From positions 195,863 through 259,862 of IMG/VR virus record IMGVR_UViG_3300037484_000445: 64,000 bases of DNA, one strand, 5' to 3'. This document shows, piece after piece, positions 35,066 through 47,902 of the stretch. Origin of the DNA: a virus. Its lineage: Duplodnaviria; Heunggongvirae; Uroviricota; Caudoviricetes. The notes under the pieces are model-generated. The model saw only the letters and a list, made by a program, of their open reading frames with translations. It had not been told where the DNA came from and ran no database searches. Numbering within the stretch: the first letter of the stretch is position 1; every line of letters starts with the position of its first letter. Made by a program: the position numbers and the translations under genes.

Positions 35066-35989
35066 ATGGTGATGTACCGGTCCAAAGACCTCACTGCTGC
35101 CCAAAATGCCCCTTCGAAGCCGTACCTTACGGACACCCATAACGCCACGGATCCTAATTTATGGGAAAAAGTCCTCATGGTAGCCAGAGGTGACCTTAGG
35201 TACATGACTCGAGTGGGACCTAAAGGTCCTCGAACAATCCACGCACCAAACCACGGTTTGGGTTACCGGCATTGGCCTAACATGCGAGCGGTGGCTTGGG
35301 CGGTTAAGCAGTACAATGGCTATGGTGGACGGTGGAAAAGTAAAGATGAGGGGAAAGAAGTCACAGCCAGTGCAGAGGGTTATTCTGGATGGATGGGCTT
35401 TAGGGTTCCGAGAGGCACTTCCAGAGTCCTAAGCCAGATAGACGTCCCTGGTCTTCGCGAGGATGAGGGTAGTTTGCACACCACCCTCATTTACATGGGG
35501 CAGGGCACGTCTTTGGAATCTTTCTGTCGAGCGGTAGAAGTAGCTTTTGTAGTTATTTCAACAGCGGCCCCTTTCACGCTAAAGACCAACAAGGTCATCA
35601 GTTTTCCAAAGGGCGACGATGGCGTGCCTATTGTATGTAAGGTTGAGTCCGGTCCCTTACATGAGTTTCACGGGAAAATGACGGCTGCTTTAGATGAAAC
35701 TGGCGTTGAGTACAACAAGAAATACCCTGTATACAAGCCTCATGTTTGCCTATCCTACGCCGACGAGACCCTACCCGATCTGGAGATCCCTACAATTGAG
35801 TGGGGTGCTCATGAATTGGAACTTTGGCTAGGACACAATGGCACATTAGCTTCGGTCAACATCCCCATACACCTCGTCAAAGGCCGGATAGCAATCGGGA
35901 ATGGTTGCACGAGTGCTAGACTCAGTCTCCAGAATGGCCTCAGCGTGTTCCGGACAATGTGGCGATTCAAAACCAGGGATCATGGGTAA
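35066..35989 (+). CDS. 2H phosphoesterase fused to a small N-terminal domain
   Basis: LHTTLIY and KPHVCLSY; N-domain WPN...AWAVKQY...GGRWK; KEVTAS linker. Confidence 0.75.
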   Translation: MVMYRSKDLTAAQNAPSKPYLTDTHNATDPNLWEKVLMVARGDLRYMTRVGPKGPRTIHAPNHGLGYRHWPNMRAVAWAVKQYNGYGGRWKSKDEGKEVTASAEGYSGWMGFRVPRGTSRVLSQIDVPGLREDEGSLHTTLIYMGQGTSLESFCRAVEVAFVVISTAAPFTLKTNKVISFPKGDDGVPIVCKVESGPLHEFHGKMTAALDETGVEYNKKYPVYKPHVCLSYADETLPDLEIPTIEWGAHELELWLGHNGTLASVNIPIHLVKGRIAIGNGCTSARLSLQNGLSVFRTMWRFKTRDHG

Positions 35990-38249: not shown

Positions 38250-38750
38250 ATGCCTACTTCCACTCCAGCCTCAGATAGTGACCGCCCTATTGACCCCAAC
38301 CAAGAGCTTGCTGGCCTTGATAGGATCGTCGAAGTCATAGCCCGACTCGTTCTCAAGTTCGGCCGTGCTACGTCAGCACTTTTGGCTATCGGCGGCCTCT
38401 TGATCCTATGCCTGATCATTCTCATTGTCTCGATGGTCCAGTTCATAACCATTCGCAATGAGATGCGAGATCTTCTCGACCGCCAGGAACTCCTTATTAA
38501 GTCCCAAGCCCGTCTCGAGAAGTCCGCCCTAGCCACACAAGTGGTACTCGAGGAAACCCAAAAGAAGGTGTCCGAGACTCAAGCTAAGGTCGAAACCGTG
38601 GCTGAATCCACCCCCAAAATCAAGGTGGATTCAAAGACAGGTAAGACCCGACTTGTCATTCAAAAGCCTGCTGTAGCACCAAGTGTGTCGGCGCCCTCTA
38701 AGCCGGCCGAGGTGGAATTCAACATTGGGCCAGGTATCAAGGCTGATTGA
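38250..38750 (+). CDS. single-TM coiled-coil protein
   Basis: ALLAIGGLLILCLIILIVSM then coiled coil. Confidence 0.6.
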   Translation: MPTSTPASDSDRPIDPNQELAGLDRIVEVIARLVLKFGRATSALLAIGGLLILCLIILIVSMVQFITIRNEMRDLLDRQELLIKSQARLEKSALATQVVLEETQKKVSETQAKVETVAESTPKIKVDSKTGKTRLVIQKPAVAPSVSAPSKPAEVEFNIGPGIKAD

Positions 38751-39282
38751 GTAGTCGAGTCCTGAGGTACATCAGGACTCGACCAAGCTTGTTCTCACCA
38801 ACCTTGGATGAGCCCCAACCCCAGTATGGATCGGGTATGGCGTCCTCGATGAGAGGCTCCGTACCCGTCCCTATTAGGGTGTCGTAAATGCTTTGGTGTT
38901 GTGTCACCTTAGCTCGTACTACCTCGAACATAACAACGTCTTTGGTGCGAGCAAACAAGGGCTCCGCTGTGACACCACAACGATTGATACCGTCGTCAGG
39001 CTGAGGTTTTTGGCTCAGTAGTGCTTGTAGGGCGTCGTTAGGTGCTAGGTCCCAGTCTTTTCTAAGGGGATAGCTCCTATTGCGGCCAAGCCGTGCCGCC
39101 GTTCCTGGGGTCTCAGCATCTAGAATGAGCTTCACCAAGTCTGGTCGGTGTGGGTGGAACTTCATCGCCTGAAATGCCGCTTCAGAAGTCTTCCACGTGT
39201 GCCCATAGATCTGCACTTCATGCCGGGAGAAGTTAGAGAAACACCCGTAAGGGTCGTTGGGGCTGTAAAACAGGATGGCCAT
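38737..39282 (-). CDS. NADAR (YbiA-like) ADP-ribose glycohydrolase
   Basis: YGCFSNF, SEAAFQAMKF, LIED...YWG.G...GENKLG..LM. Confidence 0.9.
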   Translation of the reverse strand: MAILFYSPNDPYGCFSNFSRHEVQIYGHTWKTSEAAFQAMKFHPHRPDLVKLILDAETPGTAARLGRNRSYPLRKDWDLAPNDALQALLSQKPQPDDGINRCGVTAEPLFARTKDVVMFEVVRAKVTQHQSIYDTLIGTGTEPLIEDAIPDPYWGWGSSKVGENKLGRVLMYLRTRLLNQP

Positions 39283-39329
39283 GACCGGTTTCTACACCAG
39301 CCACGGCCACCACACTACAGCTCTTCAGG

Positions 39330-41069
39330 CTACTTCAAACTGAGGCCGTAGATCTTGTGTCCTCGTTCGAAGGCGGCACGGCCATTGGCGATCATGAGGC
39401 GCATGTCGTTTCCAATGGCTGGGTCGTCCACAACCTTCACGGACTTGGACCCCTTGGAGGCCGAGAAGGCTTCCAGCTTGTCCTCCTCGGTGATAACGAT
39501 ACAGACCCCTGAGGCCAAAGTGATGAAGTTCAACCCTGTGAGGGCTATGTCTTCGACCTTTCGTAGGTCGTAAGTCAGGTAATCCGGATCGAAGCGGAAA
39601 ATCAGGCGGTCATACTTGCCCGCTTGCTCTCCAACTACCATGAGGACTCCACCCTCGAACTTGGCTTCCAAAACCTTGTATTTGTCGAGCTCTGGTACAC
39701 GAACTTGGTACCCCCTGTGGCTCTGTGGGAACAAGGAAATGTAAATCGATCCGATCATGCTTTGGATAACCACCCCTTCATAGAGGTCCGAGGCTTGTTC
39801 CAAAACATCGGCCACACAATGTGAAGCCGAGACTAGACAGGTATTGGCCAATTCGGAGAACTCGACTTCAAGGACTCGAGAACCGTTACGGACGTAGAAG
39901 CGGTCACCACTTTTGGCTAAGTCGTTGGCGTTGATCTCGAGGACTTCAGACTTTCTGGCCGAGTAGTTGAAGAATGTCAGCTTCTTTTGGTAACTGTTCA
40001 GGCCAACGGGCAAGTTTTTCTTTGGCGTGAACCCAATGAGAGTTTCACCGGGGATCGTAGCGCCTTCGAATATGCATTGGCCGTTGTGAAGCAGTCTGGA
40101 TCGGCCGTCCTTGGTGATGAGGGCCAAAGTTGATCCGTTGCTCTCTGCGTATTGGAGCAAAGTCCACTCCTCGTAGTCGAAGATGTCCGAGATGACCAGG
40201 TTCCCGCCAGTAACGACGAGAGGTACCATAGGACCGGTGAAAATGACCGCTGCTGGGCCTCCACGGGGGTCGGGCGGGGGTAGACGCTTCCCGTCCTCAA
40301 GAACGGCCTTGAGCCAATCCTTGAAGTTGGAGGGGATGACGTCAAAGGGCAGAGCACATCCAGGCAGTCTAGCCCCCGTCCTGAAGGCCGAGATGTTGTT
40401 CCGCATCCGATATTCCATCTGGTCCTGCGAGGGCATCCCATCAGTCAGAGGGTGGTTACCCCCGTAAGGGTGGACCCGCGTGTACAGCTGGAACATCAAG
40501 ACGGCATAGCTGTACCAATCTGATAGCTCAGACCACCCATCCGAACTCTTGACTGAGTAGTCTCGTATTAAGGGGCTGAGGAAGGTTGCCGGGTAACCAG
40601 CTACTTGGTAGGAATCAACGTCAATGAAGTAGGCGTCATCCCAAGTATCTGGGATCAAGACGTTCATGGCATTGAAGTCGATCATAAGCGCCTTGGCGGC
40701 GTGAATATGTGGCACATGTTCCCAAATCTTGGCGGACACGGTCACGATGTTGTCTTGCGAGACCTTATTGCGATCTCGAAAAGTCTTCGTGAAGAGATGC
40801 CCAAGCGTGTGCTTCGAGGGTACCTCTTTCATCGTGTACCCGATGGGGACCTTTTTGCTATCAAGCAGGATACTTTCGGGCTTGATGACGTGGTCGTCAG
40901 CGATTACCTTGAGGATCTGAAACTTGGCATCCGGTATAGCGTTAGCCGGATCCGTGTAGATTTTGAAGGCTTGACCCTGGTACACGTAGACCGAGGCTTG
41001 ACCACCTGCAGCCCGAAAGTGATTTTGCGTGAGGTTCACATCCCCGACACCCTTGACTGTAACCTTCAT
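39330..41069 (-). CDS. YegI-like protein kinase with beta-rich C-terminal half
   Basis: GGQASVY, AFKIY, DFNAMNVL, IDVDSYQ, SDWYSYAVL...HPY.G. Confidence 0.8.
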   Translation of the reverse strand: MKVTVKGVGDVNLTQNHFRAAGGQASVYVYQGQAFKIYTDPANAIPDAKFQILKVIADDHVIKPESILLDSKKVPIGYTMKEVPSKHTLGHLFTKTFRDRNKVSQDNIVTVSAKIWEHVPHIHAAKALMIDFNAMNVLIPDTWDDAYFIDVDSYQVAGYPATFLSPLIRDYSVKSSDGWSELSDWYSYAVLMFQLYTRVHPYGGNHPLTDGMPSQDQMEYRMRNNISAFRTGARLPGCALPFDVIPSNFKDWLKAVLEDGKRLPPPDPRGGPAAVIFTGPMVPLVVTGGNLVISDIFDYEEWTLLQYAESNGSTLALITKDGRSRLLHNGQCIFEGATIPGETLIGFTPKKNLPVGLNSYQKKLTFFNYSARKSEVLEINANDLAKSGDRFYVRNGSRVLEVEFSELANTCLVSASHCVADVLEQASDLYEGVVIQSMIGSIYISLFPQSHRGYQVRVPELDKYKVLEAKFEGGVLMVVGEQAGKYDRLIFRFDPDYLTYDLRKVEDIALTGLNFITLASGVCIVITEEDKLEAFSASKGSKSVKVVDDPAIGNDMRLMIANGRAAFERGHKIYGLSLK

Positions 41070-41923
41070 GCTAGTTCTCCCAAGTAGAGGCCGGCTACAG
41101 ACAAGTCATCCGTGTGCTTCCATTTGTTCTCGGCACAGAAGCGCTCAAGGAACATGCTGCAACGTCGAGTGATGAACTTCCCCGCGAAGCCCTTGAGGGC
41201 GAAGACTTGATCCAACACCTTTTCGATCGGGACAGGTTGATTGTCTGGTGTTTGGAAGCTCTCCACACCGTCCGAGAAGATGATAGCCAGATCGATGTCT
41301 TCGCGGCGGAAGCTCTGAGCATCTATGGGGGCAGCCACATTCAAGAATAGGGTTGAGGTTGTGGGGGTACCCCACTCTCCTTGTTCTGTTCGATAATTGT
41401 CGAGGTATTGCACAGTTTTTGCCTCGCTGAAGTATTGAGCCAATTGTTTGGGCTCCAATTGGTAGCGGAGGTAGTTGGGCATGTTGTTGCCGTACTTGAC
41501 TGTGCTGTAGTAAATTCTACCGTTCCGATAGCGGACAGCTATGACGCCATCCCCGCATCGAAAGGCTCCGATCGCATCCCCGTCTTGAATGACCCCGACG
41601 AGCGTAGCATCCAAGGCGGTGTTCCCCAACATAGCCTGTCTGGCCATAGCCATAGCGTCGGCAGTGATTTTGATGGCTGGAAACGTCTCTTGCAGGTCAA
41701 GCGCTCTGGAAACCTGAACTTCTGACAGGTAACGGCAGGTGGATCGAACTAAGAACCGGGATCCGAAGTCCGTGAAAGGTGACCCCGGAATGTTAGGTTC
41801 TGGCTGACCTGAACAACCGTCGGAGATCAAAGCGTACTGCCGACCATCTTTCGTTCCGGATAGTGCATAGTCCTGGCAGATTGTGTGGAGGGAACCCATA
41901 CGGAAAAAGAAGTCGTTGCTCAT
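41066..41923 (-). CDS. PP2C-like (YegK-type) protein phosphatase
   Basis: H..CQDYA, ISDGCS, CGDG, FSDGVESF, DDLS. Confidence 0.82.
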   Translation of the reverse strand: MSNDFFFRMGSLHTICQDYALSGTKDGRQYALISDGCSGQPEPNIPGSPFTDFGSRFLVRSTCRYLSEVQVSRALDLQETFPAIKITADAMAMARQAMLGNTALDATLVGVIQDGDAIGAFRCGDGVIAVRYRNGRIYYSTVKYGNNMPNYLRYQLEPKQLAQYFSEAKTVQYLDNYRTEQGEWGTPTTSTLFLNVAAPIDAQSFRREDIDLAIIFSDGVESFQTPDNQPVPIEKVLDQVFALKGFAGKFITRRCSMFLERFCAENKWKHTDDLSVAGLYLGELA

Positions 41924-41957
41924 CGGTAAGCCTTCAGCTGGGAGAGGTGGTAAGGGG

Positions 41958-41987
41958 GAGGCTCCTCGTATGGATACGAAGAGCCTC
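41958..41987 (-). promoter_or_regulatory. 13-14-bp intra-operon hairpin between the vWA and PP2C genes
   Basis: gaggctcctcgtat-gg-atacgaagagcctc. Confidence 0.55.
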
Positions 41988-42006
41988 GCTAGTCCCCTCA
42001 ACCAAT

Positions 42007-42750
42007 TCAGAACGTAATTGGCTTGCTGGCGCTGCCGGTGCCCAAGGACTGGGACTGGCTCGACACCGAGGCAACGACGAACCCGGCAATCTTGGCAAAC
42101 GTTTTGGGGTCGGCCTTGTCGACTTCAATGTATTGGTCGATGTTGGCGGCTTGAACGAAATCCTTGAGACACTGACTGATTCGAGGATCAGTGATGTTGA
42201 CCCCGATGAGGATGATGATGATCGATTCCAAAGACTCTTGCTGACGAGCCTTATCCACGGCGGCCTTTACGTCGCCAACGGGATGGGTCGATCCAACATC
42301 TTCACCGTCCGTCACGATGACCACGATGCCGTTGGCCTTGTAGTCCTTGGCGATCAGATCCTTACCTGCGTTGGCCAAGGACTCGACAATATTCACGGAA
42401 GCGTCGTACAAGGACGTGCAACCACCAGGCCTGATGATGCCCTTGTAGGAATCCGGAGCACAATCGACCAACAGCTTGAAGTCGTGAACCTGATCGACGT
42501 TGCTGTCGAAGGTCAAACAACGAACCAACATGTTGTCGGCCCGGGGAGCATTTTGGCAACCCTTGATCACGTTCGTGGCGGCGTCTTCGATGATCTGCCG
42601 GAACCCGGTGACGCTTCCGCTTTTGTCCAGAATGAGGCCGAACAGGGTGTAGGAGTCGGCGCCCAGGTCGTTAACGTTGATGTTCGAAAAACCGTAGTGG
42701 CTCGTCTTGATTGGGGCGGCAGTCGTGTCGTCATCCATTAGTGGGGGCAT
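42007..42750 (-). CDS. vWA-domain (TerY-like) protein
   Basis: LILDKSGSV MIDAS, TFD, GGCTSLYDA, IVTDGED. Confidence 0.85.
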   Translation of the reverse strand: MPPLMDDDTTAAPIKTSHYGFSNINVNDLGADSYTLFGLILDKSGSVTGFRQIIEDAATNVIKGCQNAPRADNMLVRCLTFDSNVDQVHDFKLLVDCAPDSYKGIIRPGGCTSLYDASVNIVESLANAGKDLIAKDYKANGIVVIVTDGEDVGSTHPVGDVKAAVDKARQQESLESIIIILIGVNITDPRISQCLKDFVQAANIDQYIEVDKADPKTFAKIAGFVVASVSSQSQSLGTGSASKPITF

Positions 42751-42804
42751 AGTGCGAAGTCCTTAGGGATTGATTCTGATCTGAGTTTGGAAGTTGAAGA
42801 TTGG

Positions 42805-43608
42805 TTACGCTAGGAAATCGACCGAAGTCGAAACGTTCATACCACGGCCGGTCATCTCCTTGATGAACGCGTCACCAAGAGCTTCACAGCCTGTTACGTT
42901 TGATGTGGTGTCCGTCAACAGCCACATCTTCTTGATGAGGTTCGGATCTGAGAAGGCGTTGACGGTATCTCGGAAGGTGTTAGCCAAACAGTGGGAGAGA
43001 GCTTCACCGGTCCAAGCCAGCATATCAGCGGTCTCGAAGACCTGGATCAACGGGCGGTTCAACTGAGTAGTAGGATCCTCAGGGTCCGGAACTTCAGCGC
43101 GGACGGCACTGAAATGCTCAGTGTAGGGATTCGAACCCTTGGTGACCTTGTTGGCCGTGGCGTATCGAGTCCGCTCCCAGTAGTCAACGGCATCCACAAG
43201 ATCGTCATTGAGGTTGTTTCCTTCACGCCCGATCAAACAGTGCTCGGGCCAAATCATGTGGGGGTAACGCCCGGTAGCTTCCAGGGCTTGGAGGTACTTG
43301 TACGACCGATCACGAGCTTTGGCCGAACGCGTACGCCACTTACCTGCCTTGAAGTCTGCCGGTGTGATAACCGTGAAAGGCGCTGGTGCGTTGCCGCTGT
43401 CGTTGATCCACCAAGTCGGATGGCTGATATCAATGAGATCGTGGCTATCCATGGTCACGTGGATGTCCGAAATCTTGGGAGTCAAGCGCTTGATCATCTT
43501 GGAGGTTCGTCCGGCGTTGTCCTCGCCCCCTTTGACGTAAAGAGCCCCATTCGGTCGGGTGAAGTCTTTTTGAATGTCGATGCAGACGATTTGCAGATTG
43601 AGTGCCAT
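42805..43608 (-). CDS. pncA: nicotinamidase (PncA)-like cysteine hydrolase
   Basis: IDIQKDF, TMDSH, HPTWW, WPEHC, KGSNP, GEALSHC. Confidence 0.8.
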   Translation of the reverse strand: MALNLQIVCIDIQKDFTRPNGALYVKGGEDNAGRTSKMIKRLTPKISDIHVTMDSHDLIDISHPTWWINDSGNAPAPFTVITPADFKAGKWRTRSAKARDRSYKYLQALEATGRYPHMIWPEHCLIGREGNNLNDDLVDAVDYWERTRYATANKVTKGSNPYTEHFSAVRAEVPDPEDPTTQLNRPLIQVFETADMLAWTGEALSHCLANTFRDTVNAFSDPNLIKKMWLLTDTTSNVTGCEALGDAFIKEMTGRGMNVSTSVDFLA

Positions 43609-43623
43609 AAATAACCGATTCTC

Positions 43624-44322
43624 CTAACGTTTCTTTGGAGCGAAGTCCAAGGTAATACCACTAGCCAACAAGTCATCGTACGCACTGCGGTTGAACGAGT
43701 ACGTTGGGGCGGGACGATGATCTCCCCGTCGTACTCCCTTTTCGGTAAGGACTCCCAAAGCTTGCATTCGCTTATGGAAGTTGGAAGCATCTAGAGTTCG
43801 TCTGAGCAGGGCTTCATAAAGGTCCTTGAGCTCTCCTAGGGTAAACTCCGTTGGTAGAAGTTCGAAACCTAACGGGGAATACCTGACCTTGGTGGACAGC
43901 CTTTCTAAGGCCATCTCCAGGATGTCATTGTGGTCGAAGGCAAGCTTGGCACTAAAAGCCTTGTCAATGCCCGACCAAAAGGCCTCTTTGGTTTTGAATC
44001 CAGCTTGAGGGTGCAGTTTATCCGACCGGATCACGCCGAGGTAGGCGATAGATATCACCCAATCCCCTGGATCTCGGTCAGGATTACTGAAGGTGTACAG
44101 TTGTTCTAAGTGGGTAGGCCGTATAGCAGTCTTGTCTTTGAGTACTCGATAGGCAGTTCCTTGCGCCGTCTCACCGGCATGCATATAGCCCCCTGGGAGG
44201 GCCAGATGCCCCCTATACGTCCCTTCAGCGCGTTCAATAAGGAGCACCTGCAAATATTCTGCCTGGGGGTTGAAACCAAAGACGACCGCATCCACTGCCA
44301 CGTAGGGTTTAGGAAACGTCAT
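43624..44322 (-). CDS. nrtR: NrtR (NUDIX + winged-HTH) ADP-ribose-sensing repressor
   Basis: VAVDAVVF, LALPGG, LEQLYTF...RDP, LAFDH..I, FTLGEL, LDASNFHKR; the Nudix box is degenerate (RVLKDK). Confidence 0.9.
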   Translation of the reverse strand: MTFPKPYVAVDAVVFGFNPQAEYLQVLLIERAEGTYRGHLALPGGYMHAGETAQGTAYRVLKDKTAIRPTHLEQLYTFSNPDRDPGDWVISIAYLGVIRSDKLHPQAGFKTKEAFWSGIDKAFSAKLAFDHNDILEMALERLSTKVRYSPLGFELLPTEFTLGELKDLYEALLRRTLDASNFHKRMQALGVLTEKGVRRGDHRPAPTYSFNRSAYDDLLASGITLDFAPKKR

Positions 44323-44383
44323 GCTACCTTATGGGCACAATGGCCACAACCGCGGTATATACACCAGCGGACATCGGATTACG

Positions 44384-44427
44384 TTCTGGTGATGACTACC
44401 ATAAGGTTTTGGTAAAGTACACCAAAA
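44384..44427. promoter_or_regulatory. two tandem 21-bp NrtR-type operators, the second overlapping a GGTGTA element
   Basis: TTCTGGT-GATGACT-ACCATAA (44384-44404) and TTTTGGT-AAAGTAC-ACCAAAA (44407-44427). Confidence 0.75.
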
Positions 44428-44478
44428 AGTAACGCCTCTCAGACGATTCTTCACTGACGCAGCTAAGTACTTGAAAGA

Positions 44479-45182: not shown

Positions 45183-45974
45183 ATGACTGACCTGTGGATG
45201 CGAATTCAACGTGTCAAGAACGATGAGGCCCTGTTGGAGGGTCTTACGTGGCGACGTCGGGAAGAGCGCTTGGCTGAAATGCCTGTTCCCTTCTGTTGTC
45301 CCAATATAGCCGGGGTTCAAGCCGTGTTTCCCCGACTCGAAGGGAATATCCCCACGGGATGGCTGACGACTGCACCAAAGCGTGGTTCGGACTTCGATCG
45401 AAAAATGGGTGTCGCCAAGTATTGTCCATTTTGCGGGACGGTACTTCCTGGCTTCCGTTTGAAGAAGAGTCCACCCGAGCATATCCAGGTCATTGATAGC
45501 CTGGACTACTGTGGCCTTTGCCATGAGCGCTACAACGGTTGCTTCTGCTCATACCCTCTTAGTGCCTGGGAAGTCGACAACGCCCCAAGTATCGTTGCTG
45601 TGACGGCTTTGATAGAACGAGAGGGAGATGAGATTCTCTCGGTCTCACGTAAGACCGACCCTAATGCCAAAGGACTTCCTGGCGGCAAGGTTGAGCTCAA
45701 TGAATCCCTTGAAACGGCTATGTGTCGAGAGCTGCTTGAAGAAACAGGGCTAATTGCTCTTGAGTTTCATCGAGTGTTTGATGCTTTGGACTCAACGGGT
45801 ATACGGGTAGTTTGCCTCAGGGTAACAAGGACTGAGAAAAAGAGTGCATCCGTTGAAAAGGGTGTTGTGCAATGGGTGAAACCGACAGCGCTAGTGACGA
45901 TGAGTCCTTTTGGGACTTTCAATTGGGGCTTGATGCAGAGGATCTCGACGCTCAACATGACGCCGCTAATCTAG
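45183..45974 (+). CDS. Cys-rich N-domain + NUDIX hydrolase
   Basis: CPFCG, CGLC..CFC; GGKVELNESLETAMCRELLEETG. Confidence 0.8.
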   Translation: MTDLWMRIQRVKNDEALLEGLTWRRREERLAEMPVPFCCPNIAGVQAVFPRLEGNIPTGWLTTAPKRGSDFDRKMGVAKYCPFCGTVLPGFRLKKSPPEHIQVIDSLDYCGLCHERYNGCFCSYPLSAWEVDNAPSIVAVTALIEREGDEILSVSRKTDPNAKGLPGGKVELNESLETAMCRELLEETGLIALEFHRVFDALDSTGIRVVCLRVTRTEKKSASVEKGVVQWVKPTALVTMSPFGTFNWGLMQRISTLNMTPLI

Positions 45975-46006: not shown

Positions 46007-46792
46007 ATGCCGCCCCTAAGAGGTTTCAATCTTGGAGTCAGCGTATTTCGATGGTTTCGTCTCAAGCTAGGGTATAAGCGTGTTGAGCCTTGTATGGTGA
46101 AGGCCAGCATACCGAACGATCCAGGCTATCCAGAACCCTCCTGGGTGAAAGAAGAGGATTCAAGCCTAAGTTCAATCCTAGATGATCAATTGGGCCATGA
46201 CGATCACGCTTGGGTTAGCTGGGGCCTGGAAAATGGTGTTAGTCCAGGTCAACCCTTTCTAATTGGGTTTCTAAAGCCCGTGTGGTCTCGCTGTAGCTAC
46301 GAGTACGACGAATGGGATGCTGACTACCCTTGGGAGTTGATTCGAGTTCTCCCTAATAACCCTGTGTCCGCTATTCAATCTTGGGATAGGGCTCTCAAGC
46401 AAATGGCCGCCATAAGGGTCAAGAAACAGCGACACTCCGAGCATACCCACCGCCTAAGTCTAGCCCTCAAGCATCGTTGGAGGATTGACGTTCAACATTT
46501 TGGAGGTTCCCACTTCAATAGCCCTGATCGCGTGCAACTCAGCCTTATCTGTGCTTCACGAGAAGCAGGGAACTCGCACCTGGCCTGGGGGGAAGCCGGA
46601 GGTAACCACTACGTATCCGGAGTTGGTTATGTCCAGGAGCGCTCCGACAAGGATGTAGCCTTTTCTCGGCTACTAGCAAACTTCATGAAGAGTCACCCCG
46701 AGGAGGATCCCGCGCCGTTAATTGAGCTAGCAGGCACGGCCGGGATCGCACTCACTCGGATTGATCGGATCCTCTATGCGTCAACGGGGTAG
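46007..46792 (+). CDS. hypothetical protein
   Basis: Start uncertain. Confidence 0.6.
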   Translation: MPPLRGFNLGVSVFRWFRLKLGYKRVEPCMVKASIPNDPGYPEPSWVKEEDSSLSSILDDQLGHDDHAWVSWGLENGVSPGQPFLIGFLKPVWSRCSYEYDEWDADYPWELIRVLPNNPVSAIQSWDRALKQMAAIRVKKQRHSEHTHRLSLALKHRWRIDVQHFGGSHFNSPDRVQLSLICASREAGNSHLAWGEAGGNHYVSGVGYVQERSDKDVAFSRLLANFMKSHPEEDPAPLIELAGTAGIALTRIDRILYASTG

Positions 46793-47902
46793 GGCCGAAA
46801 GAATCATACCCAAAGTCGACCAGTCTACGAGGTTCTCTGCGGCGATGTCTGCCACGTCTCGGACTTCAATGTAAGTTCGTTCGGATTCGGCGAGAACCCC
46901 GTGGGCAGATTTGTCAGCCTCAAGGATAGCCAACTCCTCTGAGGTCAGTTCTGCTACGAACAAGGTGCTGGTATGGGTTGTGAGCGTGGCACAGAGCTGC
47001 CGGGACTCTCGCTTGGTGAACCTGGCCGGGTCCATTACGAGGCCGGTCTCTTCGTGAACCTCTTCGGCAGCAACCTCAAGGGGGTTGGCCTTCTTGTCCG
47101 GCGAGGAACCGCTAGGAAGCTCGTAGACAAAGCACTCGGGGTTACGGGCAGGGCTGCGGAACTCTCGCACTAGGACGACTTTGGTGCCCTTGTAGAGCAA
47201 GACGGCTGATATGTCGGGCCTAAATAGGCAAAACTCGTTGATCTTACTTCGGTGCTCTTTGGCAATCCAAACCCGGACGTGAACCGTGTAGCAGAATAGT
47301 GCCCCGCTCTTGGGGGCGTGAAAGCTGCTCACTACCCGTCCGCCCTCGAGGCGGTTGCCTACTTTTAGCTGAGCCTGGTACCAGGATTGGAAGTCCTTTC
47401 GTTTCCAAATGTGTAGAGGAATTGTACATTCCCCTCCCGTCCGGAGAGCACCTTCCCCCAGAAAATGTTCTAAGGCCCACTCGAGGGCTTGCTTCAGGTC
47501 GATAGTCCCCGGGACTCGAAGCTTCTTGGCATAATGGACGGGGTACCGGGTATGAGTGGCTTCTGGAGGAGCTGCCCATATTACCTTGCCGGTATCCTCC
47601 CAGCGACCCCATTCGATATTGGTTGTCAAAGCGGGCTGCTCATCGCTTCGAGGAACCCAGAAGACAATGACGTCCGCACGGTTCAGGGCCTCTTCTTCCC
47701 ATTCGATCTGTTCTGTGATCTTACCGTTGAAGCCTCCACGAACCTCGGGGACGAACACAGTGCCATCATAACCAAGACTTTCGAGGATGTTAAGGGCCTC
47801 GACTCTCCATGAAGGGCTGTCGTCTCGAGGTGTGGGACCGGTTAGAAATATGGACTTAGTGACAGTTGTTGGAAATGGTTCTTGAGATTGAATTATATCC
47901 AT
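46781..47902 (-). CDS. nucleoside 2-deoxyribosyltransferase-like + NUDIX fusion
   Basis: IFLTGPTPR...SWR...EQIEWE...ADVIVFWVPR...TTNIEWG; ELPSGS...EEVHEETG. Confidence 0.8.
   Translation of the reverse strand: MDIIQSQEPFPTTVTKSIFLTGPTPRDDSPSWRVEALNILESLGYDGTVFVPEVRGGFNGKITEQIEWEEEALNRADVIVFWVPRSDEQPALTTNIEWGRWEDTGKVIWAAPPEATHTRYPVHYAKKLRVPGTIDLKQALEWALEHFLGEGALRTGGECTIPLHIWKRKDFQSWYQAQLKVGNRLEGGRVVSSFHAPKSGALFCYTVHVRVWIAKEHRSKINEFCLFRPDISAVLLYKGTKVVLVREFRSPARNPECFVYELPSGSSPDKKANPLEVAAEEVHEETGLVMDPARFTKRESRQLCATLTTHTSTLFVAELTSEELAILEADKSAHGVLAESERTYIEVRDVADIAAENLVDWSTLGMILSALPR

Follow-up and report, generated by a model that had tools for sequence, protein, structure and literature searches.

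Regulons of NAD salvage controlled by NrtR include nrtR-pncA-pncB-nadD-nadE in Clostridium acetobutylicum and nrtR divergent from pncA-pncB in Pseudomonas, and the NrtR sites in them are 21-bp palindromes with a GT-N7-AC core that overlap the promoter or lie 3' of it (Rodionov et al. 2008, PMC2330246). The locus described here was found in a window of 64,000 nucleotides (the whole stretch of DNA that was analysed), which corresponds to bases 195,863-259,862 of the 451,925-bp IMG/VR virus record IMGVR_UViG_3300037484_000445, 94% complete by CheckV. On balance, this locus is probably a huge-phage copy of a conserved cassette of nicotinamidase, vWA protein, PP2C phosphatase and kinase-propeller protein, placed under its own NrtR and serving as a salvage module, with a separate YbiA-type NADAR alongside. 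From 44322 down to 38737, the minus strand has six open reading frames (ORFs) in a head-to-tail row, listed here in the order of transcription:

43624..44322, minus strand: gene 1, nrtR, 232 aa, a Nudix-winged helix-turn-helix (wHTH) regulator whose Nudix box is degenerate (Pfam, PDB homology)
42805..43608, minus strand: gene 2, divergent nicotinamidase, a PncA-like cysteine hydrolase of 267 aa (profile, AF2 model, Foldseek)
42007..42750, minus strand: gene 3, TerY/YegL-like vWA protein of 247 aa with an intact MIDAS and a Ser/Gln-rich C-terminal tail (family alignment)
41066..41923, minus strand: gene 4, PP2C-type phosphatase of 285 aa (PF13672, PP2C_2, 8e-13)
39330..41069, minus strand: gene 5, Ser/Thr-type kinase (residues 1-270) with a propeller-like domain (residues 286-579), 579 aa in all (BLAST, model)
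38737..39282, minus strand: gene 6, YbiA-subfamily NADAR of 181 aa (PF08719, 1.8e-26)

The common orientation of the six genes and their domain calls had been proposed in a first-pass annotation made from the letters of the window, and both were confirmed, the domain calls by Pfam, fold and residue evidence.

Depleting NAD+ is one of the main ways of defence against phages, and we know of no case among the phage NAD-rebuilding routes NARP1, NARP2 and NARP3 in which the route is induced by the breakdown product. TerY-P triads, reportedly treated by Anantharaman, Iyer and Aravind in 2012, have so far been tied to tellurite resistance and restriction systems. At its C-terminus, the TerY-P kinase carries a zinc ribbon, which in defence variants is replaced by an OB fold (PMC11090510). 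NARP1 consists of Adps (Prs-like) and Namat and NARP2 of Nampt and NMNAT (bioRxiv 10.1101/2024.02.11.579819), NARP3 consists of PnuC and NadR (PMC13464706), and "NAD-jumbo phages" carry pncB-nadD-nadE clusters (Microbiome 2024, PMC11662467). Iyer et al. (2022, PMC9503650, section 3.8) describe bacterial systems that centre on an ADP-ribosylglycohydrolase (ARG), in which vWA chaperones and phosphatases accompany a regulator of the Nudix-HTH or WYL kind and NADAR is present now and then.

As in the NrtR regulons, the phage locus has a Nudix-wHTH protein as putative repressor, 21-bp GT-N7-AC operators at the promoter, pncA as a target and a link to pncB, nadD and nadE; however, it is located on a 452-kb phage, its operators lie beside a GGTGTA promoter-like motif, the operon includes a vWA-PP2C-kinase triad that none of the described regulons has, and pncB, nadD and nadE are found 190 kb off with no detectable box. 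The TerY/YegL-like MIDAS vWA, the PP2C and the Ser/Thr kinase come in the same order as in TerY-P and in yegL-pphC-yegI, but the phage kinase has a beta-propeller, there is no PADLOC match, and in place of restriction or Ter genes a nicotinamidase and NAD-salvage genes always go with the triad. With the NAD-jumbo phages and NARP1/2/3 it would share a full route from a breakdown product to NAD+ in a huge phage, whereas here the route would begin at nicotinamide via the nicotinamidase, be gated by NrtR and be coupled to the triad. Finally, the ARG-centred systems share with the phage locus a neighbourhood in which an NrtR-like Nudix-HTH protein, predicted to sense ADP-ribose (ADPr), is encoded near a NADAR, a phosphatase and a vWA protein; in contrast to them, the core of the phage locus is a nicotinamidase and not an ADP-ribosylglycohydrolase, its PP2C is paired with a kinase, and it is phage-borne.

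A text search of PMC11662467 found no kinase, and no nicotinamidase among its mentions of nicotinamide. pncA was not found by text search in PMC13464706, and the literature search returned no paper joining NARP1/2 with pncA; a full-text literature search in which nicotinamidase was paired with vWA, PP2C or TerY yielded nothing relevant. The circuit had been annotated as not known to be described in a phage, which holds for the quartet, present in no searched paper, but not for Preiss-Handler clusters of jumbo phages, which are already published (PMC11662467). Particular to the present locus are the phage NrtR with its well-kept tandem operators, the split pathway, the adjacent NADAR with its own promoter-like motif, and the kinase-phosphatase-vWA partnership, which is absent from the searched literature.

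Conservation of the nicotinamidase-vWA-PP2C-kinase quartet

A single-protein search of viral contigs with gene 2 found no locus, and an alignment-based search of IMG/VR found 65 loci; most of their contigs are 100-620 kb long, and several have terminal repeats. The ORFs of the loci were compared by phmmer, and genes were counted in the 59 viral loci that were non-redundant and had sufficient flanking sequence. The ordered and co-directional arrangement nicotinamidase, vWA, PP2C and kinase was present in most viral loci, about 50 of the 59 (51 have vWA, 46 the kinase and 43 PP2C). NadE was found in 15/59, PncB in 12/59 and NadD in 7/59. In 14-17 viral loci, the PncB-like and NadE-like genes either stand directly 5' in the same orientation or come between PP2C and kinase; the 619-kb phage L031 has the order PncB-NadE-PncA-vWA-PP2C-kinase-NadD-NrtR. 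The first-pass annotation had treated all six genes as the unit; however, NrtR accompanies 13/59 (~22%) and NADAR 2/59 (~3%) of the phage copies (ARH, the ADP-ribosylglycohydrolase found elsewhere in the genome, also 2/59), and the conserved unit is the quartet.

The bacterial scan covered one genome per species, and the best 80 of 256 matching stretches were taken as loci. Among these best 80, the quartet was found in Myxococcota, Armatimonadota, Planctomycetota, Rhodoferax, Accumulibacter and others, often with NrtR 3' of the kinase or divergent 5'. Phages and bacteria have the quartet in the same order. In the closed 4.4-Mb chromosome of a Capsulimonadaceae bacterium, the quartet has leuB/leuA, a serpin and a histidine kinase on one side and, directly 3' of the quartet's kinase, a canonical PncB (PF04095, 3.5e-72) on the other, and this copy is cellular and not prophage cargo. 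The alternative that all bacterial copies are prophages or mis-binned phage contigs was rejected because of this copy, which stands amid leuA/leuB and canonical pncB. By gene content and order, the functional unit is the nicotinamidase-vWA-PP2C-kinase quartet and, since it occurs in dozens of huge phages as well as in bacterial chromosomes, it is not a phage invention.

A metagenome-assembled genome of Armatimonadota (L106, 7136-14566) has the order NrtR-PncA-vWA-NADAR-ARH-kinase-PncB, being the sole sampled bacterial locus with NADAR inside the cassette.

Nicotinamidase

A profile of 30 gene 2 homologues matched yeast Pnc1 (2.5e-9) and other nicotinamidases, and the residues corresponding to the catalytic D11, K157 and C207 and to the metal-binding D54, H56 and H123, as aligned to Pnc1, are invariant in the 30 homologues. 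The AF2 model of gene 2 (pLDDT 95.7) was searched with Foldseek, and the top 22 PDB matches are all nicotinamidases, the best of them 2wta (7e-15). Gene 2 is, by fold and active site, a nicotinamidase, as had been called from the letters of the window, and nicotinamide is its likely substrate.

The family to which gene 2 belongs comprises at least 2,784 proteins in a collection of 5.8 billion and forms a separate, divergent clade. In the maximum-likelihood tree, the enzyme of the window belongs to a clade of six that contains phage sequences only (SH-aLRT 99), nested in a set of 70 rows of which 57 are bacterial, mostly Myxococcota, and well-supported branches force at least five switches between phage and bacterium.

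NrtR and its operators

Gene 1 contains an N-terminal Nudix domain (NUDIX, PF00293, 4.8e-11) and a C-terminal winged helix (NrtR_WHD, PF21906, 1.5e-18), and aligns over its full length with the NrtR of Shewanella oneidensis (3gz5, 9e-29) and the AraR of Bacteroides (5bs6, 6.5e-34). Its Nudix box is GYMHAGETAQGTAYRVLKDKTAI, with R-V-L-K-D-K in place of the consensus REUxEE, the catalytic glutamates being gone; the degenerate box was already noticed in the first reading of the window. Upstream of the gene, the following elements were found:

44433..44445, minus strand: terminator-like hairpin with a T-run, at the end of the preceding 221-aa gene and just before the operators (consensus scan only)
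44407-44427, minus strand: operator box 1, an NrtR-type 21-bp palindrome, TTTTGGTGTACTTTACCAAAA (palindrome score 14/14)
44384-44404, minus strand: operator box 2, an NrtR-type 21-bp palindrome, TTATGGTAGTCATCACCAGAA (palindrome score 12/14)
44329..44371, minus strand: promoter-like motif CTGGTGTATATAC and leader, with the core GGTGTA at 44360-44365 (read from the sequence)
44329-44349, minus strand: weak third, half-symmetric box in the leader (read from the sequence)

On the coding strand, from 5' to 3', the terminator-like hairpin is followed by box 1, 2 bases, box 2, 17 nt, CTGGTGTATATAC, a 31-nt leader and the ATG of nrtR, and this leader holds the weak third box and an AAGG Shine-Dalgarno (SD) sequence. 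The two boxes are in tandem, 2 bp apart, and both have the GT-N7-AC core. Box 1 has the form TTTTGGT-N7-ACCAAAA and is the sole such site in the 451,925 bp scanned, while shuffled genomes contain 0-1 sites scoring at least 12/14. In a sister phage (L008), whose proteins are 85-87% identical, the 160-nt upstream region is 94% identical; box 1 is identical, all four changes of box 2 (4/4) fall in its spacer, and the stretch 44329..44371 has 3 base differences only. Furthermore, in other loci that encode NrtR, GT-N7-AC palindromes are clustered just 5' of pncA: this region makes up 1.3% of the sequence and holds 13/55 of them (p=2.5e-13). The operator-like palindromes first annotated 5' of the regulator are thus two tandem, genome-unique sites of NrtR type, kept in a sister phage, and the regulator belongs to the NrtR family with family-typical predicted operators at its promoter. 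This arrangement suggests that the phage NrtR acts as a repressor of the operon.

In a sister lineage, the place of nrtR is taken by a Nudix protein of 192 aa whose box is intact and which lacks the winged helix (L009:7394-7972; also in L013). It appears, from these sequences, that the sensor/repressor was swapped there for a probable hydrolase, or the reverse.

NAD pathway in the rest of the genome

pncB, nadD and nadE were first annotated as absent from the window, and the search of the whole genome (C1) located homologue-like genes, together with an ARH gene, ~190 kb from the operon:

C1:437011-437658: NadD-like adenylyltransferase (domain match)
C1:440719-441669: ADP-ribosylglycohydrolase (ARH), PF03747 2.8e-63
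C1:442127-443707: divergent PncB-like protein
C1:443656-445623: glutamine-dependent NadE, with CN_hydrolase and NAD_synthase domains

The ARH gene adjoins those for the PncB-like protein and NadE (C1:440719-445623, equal to L006:9720-14624), and the NadD-like gene is found 3 kb further 5'. No Prs/Adps-like gene (PF13793) and no PnuC was matched in the genome (the NadR kinase domain was not searched for), nor was a Nampt-NMNAT pair found, the only match to the PF04095 family being the nicotinate phosphoribosyltransferase (PRTase)-like protein. Having no Prs/Adps or Nampt-NMNAT pair, the phage differs in its enzymes from NARP1 and NARP2, as had been stated, and, with no PnuC matched, from NARP3. 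Because genes like pncB, nadD and nadE are present and Prs/Adps and PnuC are not, the Preiss-Handler route from nicotinamide to nicotinate, nicotinate mononucleotide (NaMN), nicotinate adenine dinucleotide (NaAD) and NAD+ is, as judged from gene content, the only NAD route identified in the phage.

The NadD-like gene has as its neighbour an HD-domain protein with matches like those of CCA tRNA nucleotidyltransferase (TIGR02692).

The vWA, PP2C and kinase triad

Gene 3 itself has no Pfam match; its homologues match PF00092 or carry the JGI name "YegL". The MIDAS of gene 3 (D42-x-S44-x-S46...T112...D148) is invariant or nearly so across the vWA family, and so is the C-terminal tail SSQSQSLGTG..QPITF, near-invariant at residues 228-247 (42007-42069), which is a candidate phospho-acceptor or docking peptide. 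The vWA family profile found no solved relative by sequence. For the PP2C gene, the longest ORF starts from TTG at 42001; translation probably begins at the ATG at 41923, because the gene call in the sister phage also gives 285 aa and an SD-like GAAGG lies upstream. Gene 5 matches Pfam Pkinase weakly, has the invariant residues K36, D131, N136 and D150 in the family alignment, and its N-terminal half aligns with the E. coli YegI kinase region (5e-8). Its model (pLDDT 92) consists of a kinase and an all-beta, propeller-like domain, and the top Foldseek matches are LRRK2 (kinase plus WD40) and WD40/PROPPIN propellers.

This likeness to E. coli raises the alternative of a conflict system of TerY-P type, in which the triad would be the core of a defence or superinfection-exclusion system and the nicotinamidase-like protein its effector or accessory. 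The domains and gene order of the triad are those of E. coli yegL-pphC-yegI, the kinase domain is related to that of YegI, and TerY-P-like triads are known as stand-alone anti-phage systems (Gao 2020, as cited in PMC11090510). The other pairwise BLAST comparisons with E. coli are marginal (PP2C with PphC, E=0.058; vWA with YegL, 3e-4), none of the three triad proteins matched a PADLOC TerY-P model at E<=0.01, and the kinase has a beta-propeller in place of the TerY-P zinc ribbon or OB fold. Moreover, in phages and bacteria alike the cassette recurs between pncB, nadE and nadD and under regulation by NrtR, and a TerY-P-type conflict system is here considered a remote explanation. In the salvage module favoured here, the triad would most likely act on the first step of salvage, as a switch or sensor that works by phosphorylation. 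The fixed partnership of nicotinamidase, kinase, phosphatase and vWA protein in huge phages and several bacterial phyla suggests post-translational control of NAD recycling, which no searched paper describes, and a TerY-P-like triad would then be tied to a defined metabolic step.

NADAR and transcription units

Gene 6 scores above the cut-offs of PF08719 (93.8 bits, cut-off 35.1) and TIGR02464 (103.3 bits, cut-off 73.7), and is closer to E. coli YbiA (2b3w, 2e-25) than to the DarT-type NADAR (8bau, 6e-4). NADARs of YbiA type reverse guanine ADP-ribosylation (PMC11125620), and gene 6 is, by analogy, predicted to remove ADP-ribose adducts. Upstream of it, one element was found:

39293-39300, minus strand: promoter-like motif CTGGTGTA of NADAR, with the GGTGTA core ~10 nt before the ATG, kept in L008

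No Shine-Dalgarno sequence was found upstream of NADAR. The four genes after nrtR, on the other hand, have SD-like sequences, are separated by gaps of 15-83 nt or by an ATGA overlap (the start of the kinase overlapping the stop of PP2C) and have no GGTGTA motif. Because NADAR has its own promoter-like motif and no SD, it is probably outside the operon transcript, and the layout of motifs points to a five-gene operon, nrtR-pncA-vWA-PP2C-kinase, with NADAR as a separate transcription unit. The operon of six genes originally proposed is therefore retained for the first five and not for NADAR.

The terminator scan also called a 16-bp hairpin at 39274-39311 (minus strand), across the promoter-like motif and the start codon of NADAR; this hairpin more likely bears on NADAR expression than on termination.

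Proposed function

Here it is proposed that NrtR dimers would sit on the two tandem operators just 5' of the promoter-like motif and keep nrtR-pncA-vWA-PP2C-kinase off. Upon breakdown of NAD+, either by NADase defences of the host or by NAD-consuming enzymes of the phage itself, an NAD-derived ligand would rise, most likely ADP-ribose by analogy with the characterised NrtRs, and NrtR would come off the DNA. The nicotinamidase would then convert the released nicotinamide to nicotinate, which the PncB-like protein, the NadD-like protein and the glutamine-dependent NadE of the phage, encoded ~190 kb away, could carry on to NAD+, with the vWA/PP2C/kinase triad acting as a phosphorylation switch or sensor upon the first step. 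The salvage circuit first read from the window is kept in its NrtR family, its nicotinamidase fold and its salvage theme, but not as a unit of six genes. The locus offers a testable case of a phage metabolite sensor, NrtR, gating a salvage enzyme.

Several observations weigh against this proposal. Gene 2 itself has no Pfam match, Isochorismatase (PF00857) included, and has a family-specific insertion of ~55 aa relative to classical PncA, such that its substrate could differ; against the NCBIfam PncA model NF008623 it scores 23.8 bits, where the cut-off is 174. Gene 1 scores 152 bits against the NCBIfam NrtR equivalog NF050029, whose cut-off is 400, which makes it, by profile score, a member of the NrtR family and not the curated equivalog. 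Its closest solved relative is AraR, an arabinose sensor, and on these two results the ligand of the phage NrtR could be other than ADP-ribose. The PncB-like protein is very divergent (17 bits against PF04095, below the cut-off; 63 bits against 297 for NCBIfam). The genome-wide scan found no NrtR boxes near the distant pncB, nadE and nadD, so the pathway is not one co-regulated regulon.

Some of these observations could also be explained by a different chemistry, in which the hydrolase would act on another amide (nicotinamide nucleotide or riboside, or one derived from ADPr), the regulator would sense a ligand other than ADP-ribose, and the link to salvage would be partial. Such a chemistry would fit the hydrolase family, whose members (at least 2,784) form a clade of their own that has the insertion and lacks a Pfam match. 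It would also fit the presence of non-ADPr sensors such as AraR in the NrtR family and of a catalytic-looking Nudix without wHTH in the NrtR position of sister lineages. However, all six catalytic and metal-binding residues of nicotinamidases are invariant, the top 22 structural matches include no other isochorismatase-family enzymes, and in bacteria a canonical PncB stands directly 3', which makes this different chemistry very improbable.

A dedicated counter-defence function was also considered, in which the operon would sense ADP-ribose released by Thoeris/SIR2/TIR-type NADases and restore NAD+ while NADAR repairs ADP-ribosyl damage, making this a fourth phage route. The operon is located in an island of nucleotide- and ADPr-processing genes, which also encodes NADAR, a 2H phosphoesterase resembling Acb1 and a further pair of Nudix proteins. 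NAD rebuilding by phages is a proven counter-defence (NARP1/2, bioRxiv 10.1101/2024.02.11.579819; NARP3, PMC13464706) and phage NADARs can neutralise DarT1 (PMC11825919); reversal of guanine ADP-ribosylation by NADARs of YbiA type (PMC11125620) also fits. However, the same cassette, often with NrtR, is found amid housekeeping genes of bacteria, where it cannot be an anti-defence device, NrtR and NADAR accompany few of the phage copies (13/59 and 2/59), and NADAR stands on its own promoter-like motif. In addition, four steps consuming ATP or PRPP would be a slow reply to an acute collapse of NAD+, and for the source phage neither a host nor a defence system is known. A counter-defence purpose of the operon is plausible in itself, with the surrounding island (two Nudix, Acb1-like, NADAR) leaning to conflict and the bacterial housekeeping context leaning to homeostasis; as the dedicated function of the locus, it is considered unlikely. 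The most specific proposal, that the quartet is a phosphorylation-gated entry to NAD+ salvage, induced here by ADP-ribose via NrtR, and that with PncB, NadD and NadE it forms a fourth, Preiss-Handler route of NAD+ reconstitution that would defeat NAD-depleting immunity, is distinctly doubtful.

Just 5' of the operon, the Nudix proteins are encoded at 45183-45974 (plus strand) and 46781-47902 (minus strand), one of them having the intact box RELLEETGL and the other carrying an additional domain that resembles nucleoside 2-deoxyribosyltransferase. The plus strand at 35066-35989 encodes a protein of 307 aa that weakly matches 2H phosphoesterases and Acb1 (anti-CBASS), and this protein is found near the cassette also in the related huge-phage loci L011 and L012.

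Source genome

By its gene content, the source of the window is a tailed huge phage, since portal, head-maturation proteases and the major head protein are encoded at 74-84 kb of the genome (PHROG matches; major head protein phrog_2522, 1e-50). The viral nature of the contig, which the first-pass annotation had left open to refutation, is supported by these genes. The terminase models PF03237 and PF17289 had no match in the genome, the HK97 capsid model PF05065 had a sub-threshold match only, and megablast of the region against phage records and E. coli genomes gave no match.

The genome also encodes CoaD, phosphopantetheine adenylyltransferase (C1:412825-413382, equal to L007:3825-4382; 179 bits, cut-off 103), and a CoaBC-like gene is found 5' of PncB in a related phage (L024:3361-4725). 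The coenzyme A genes of huge phages are perhaps worth attention.

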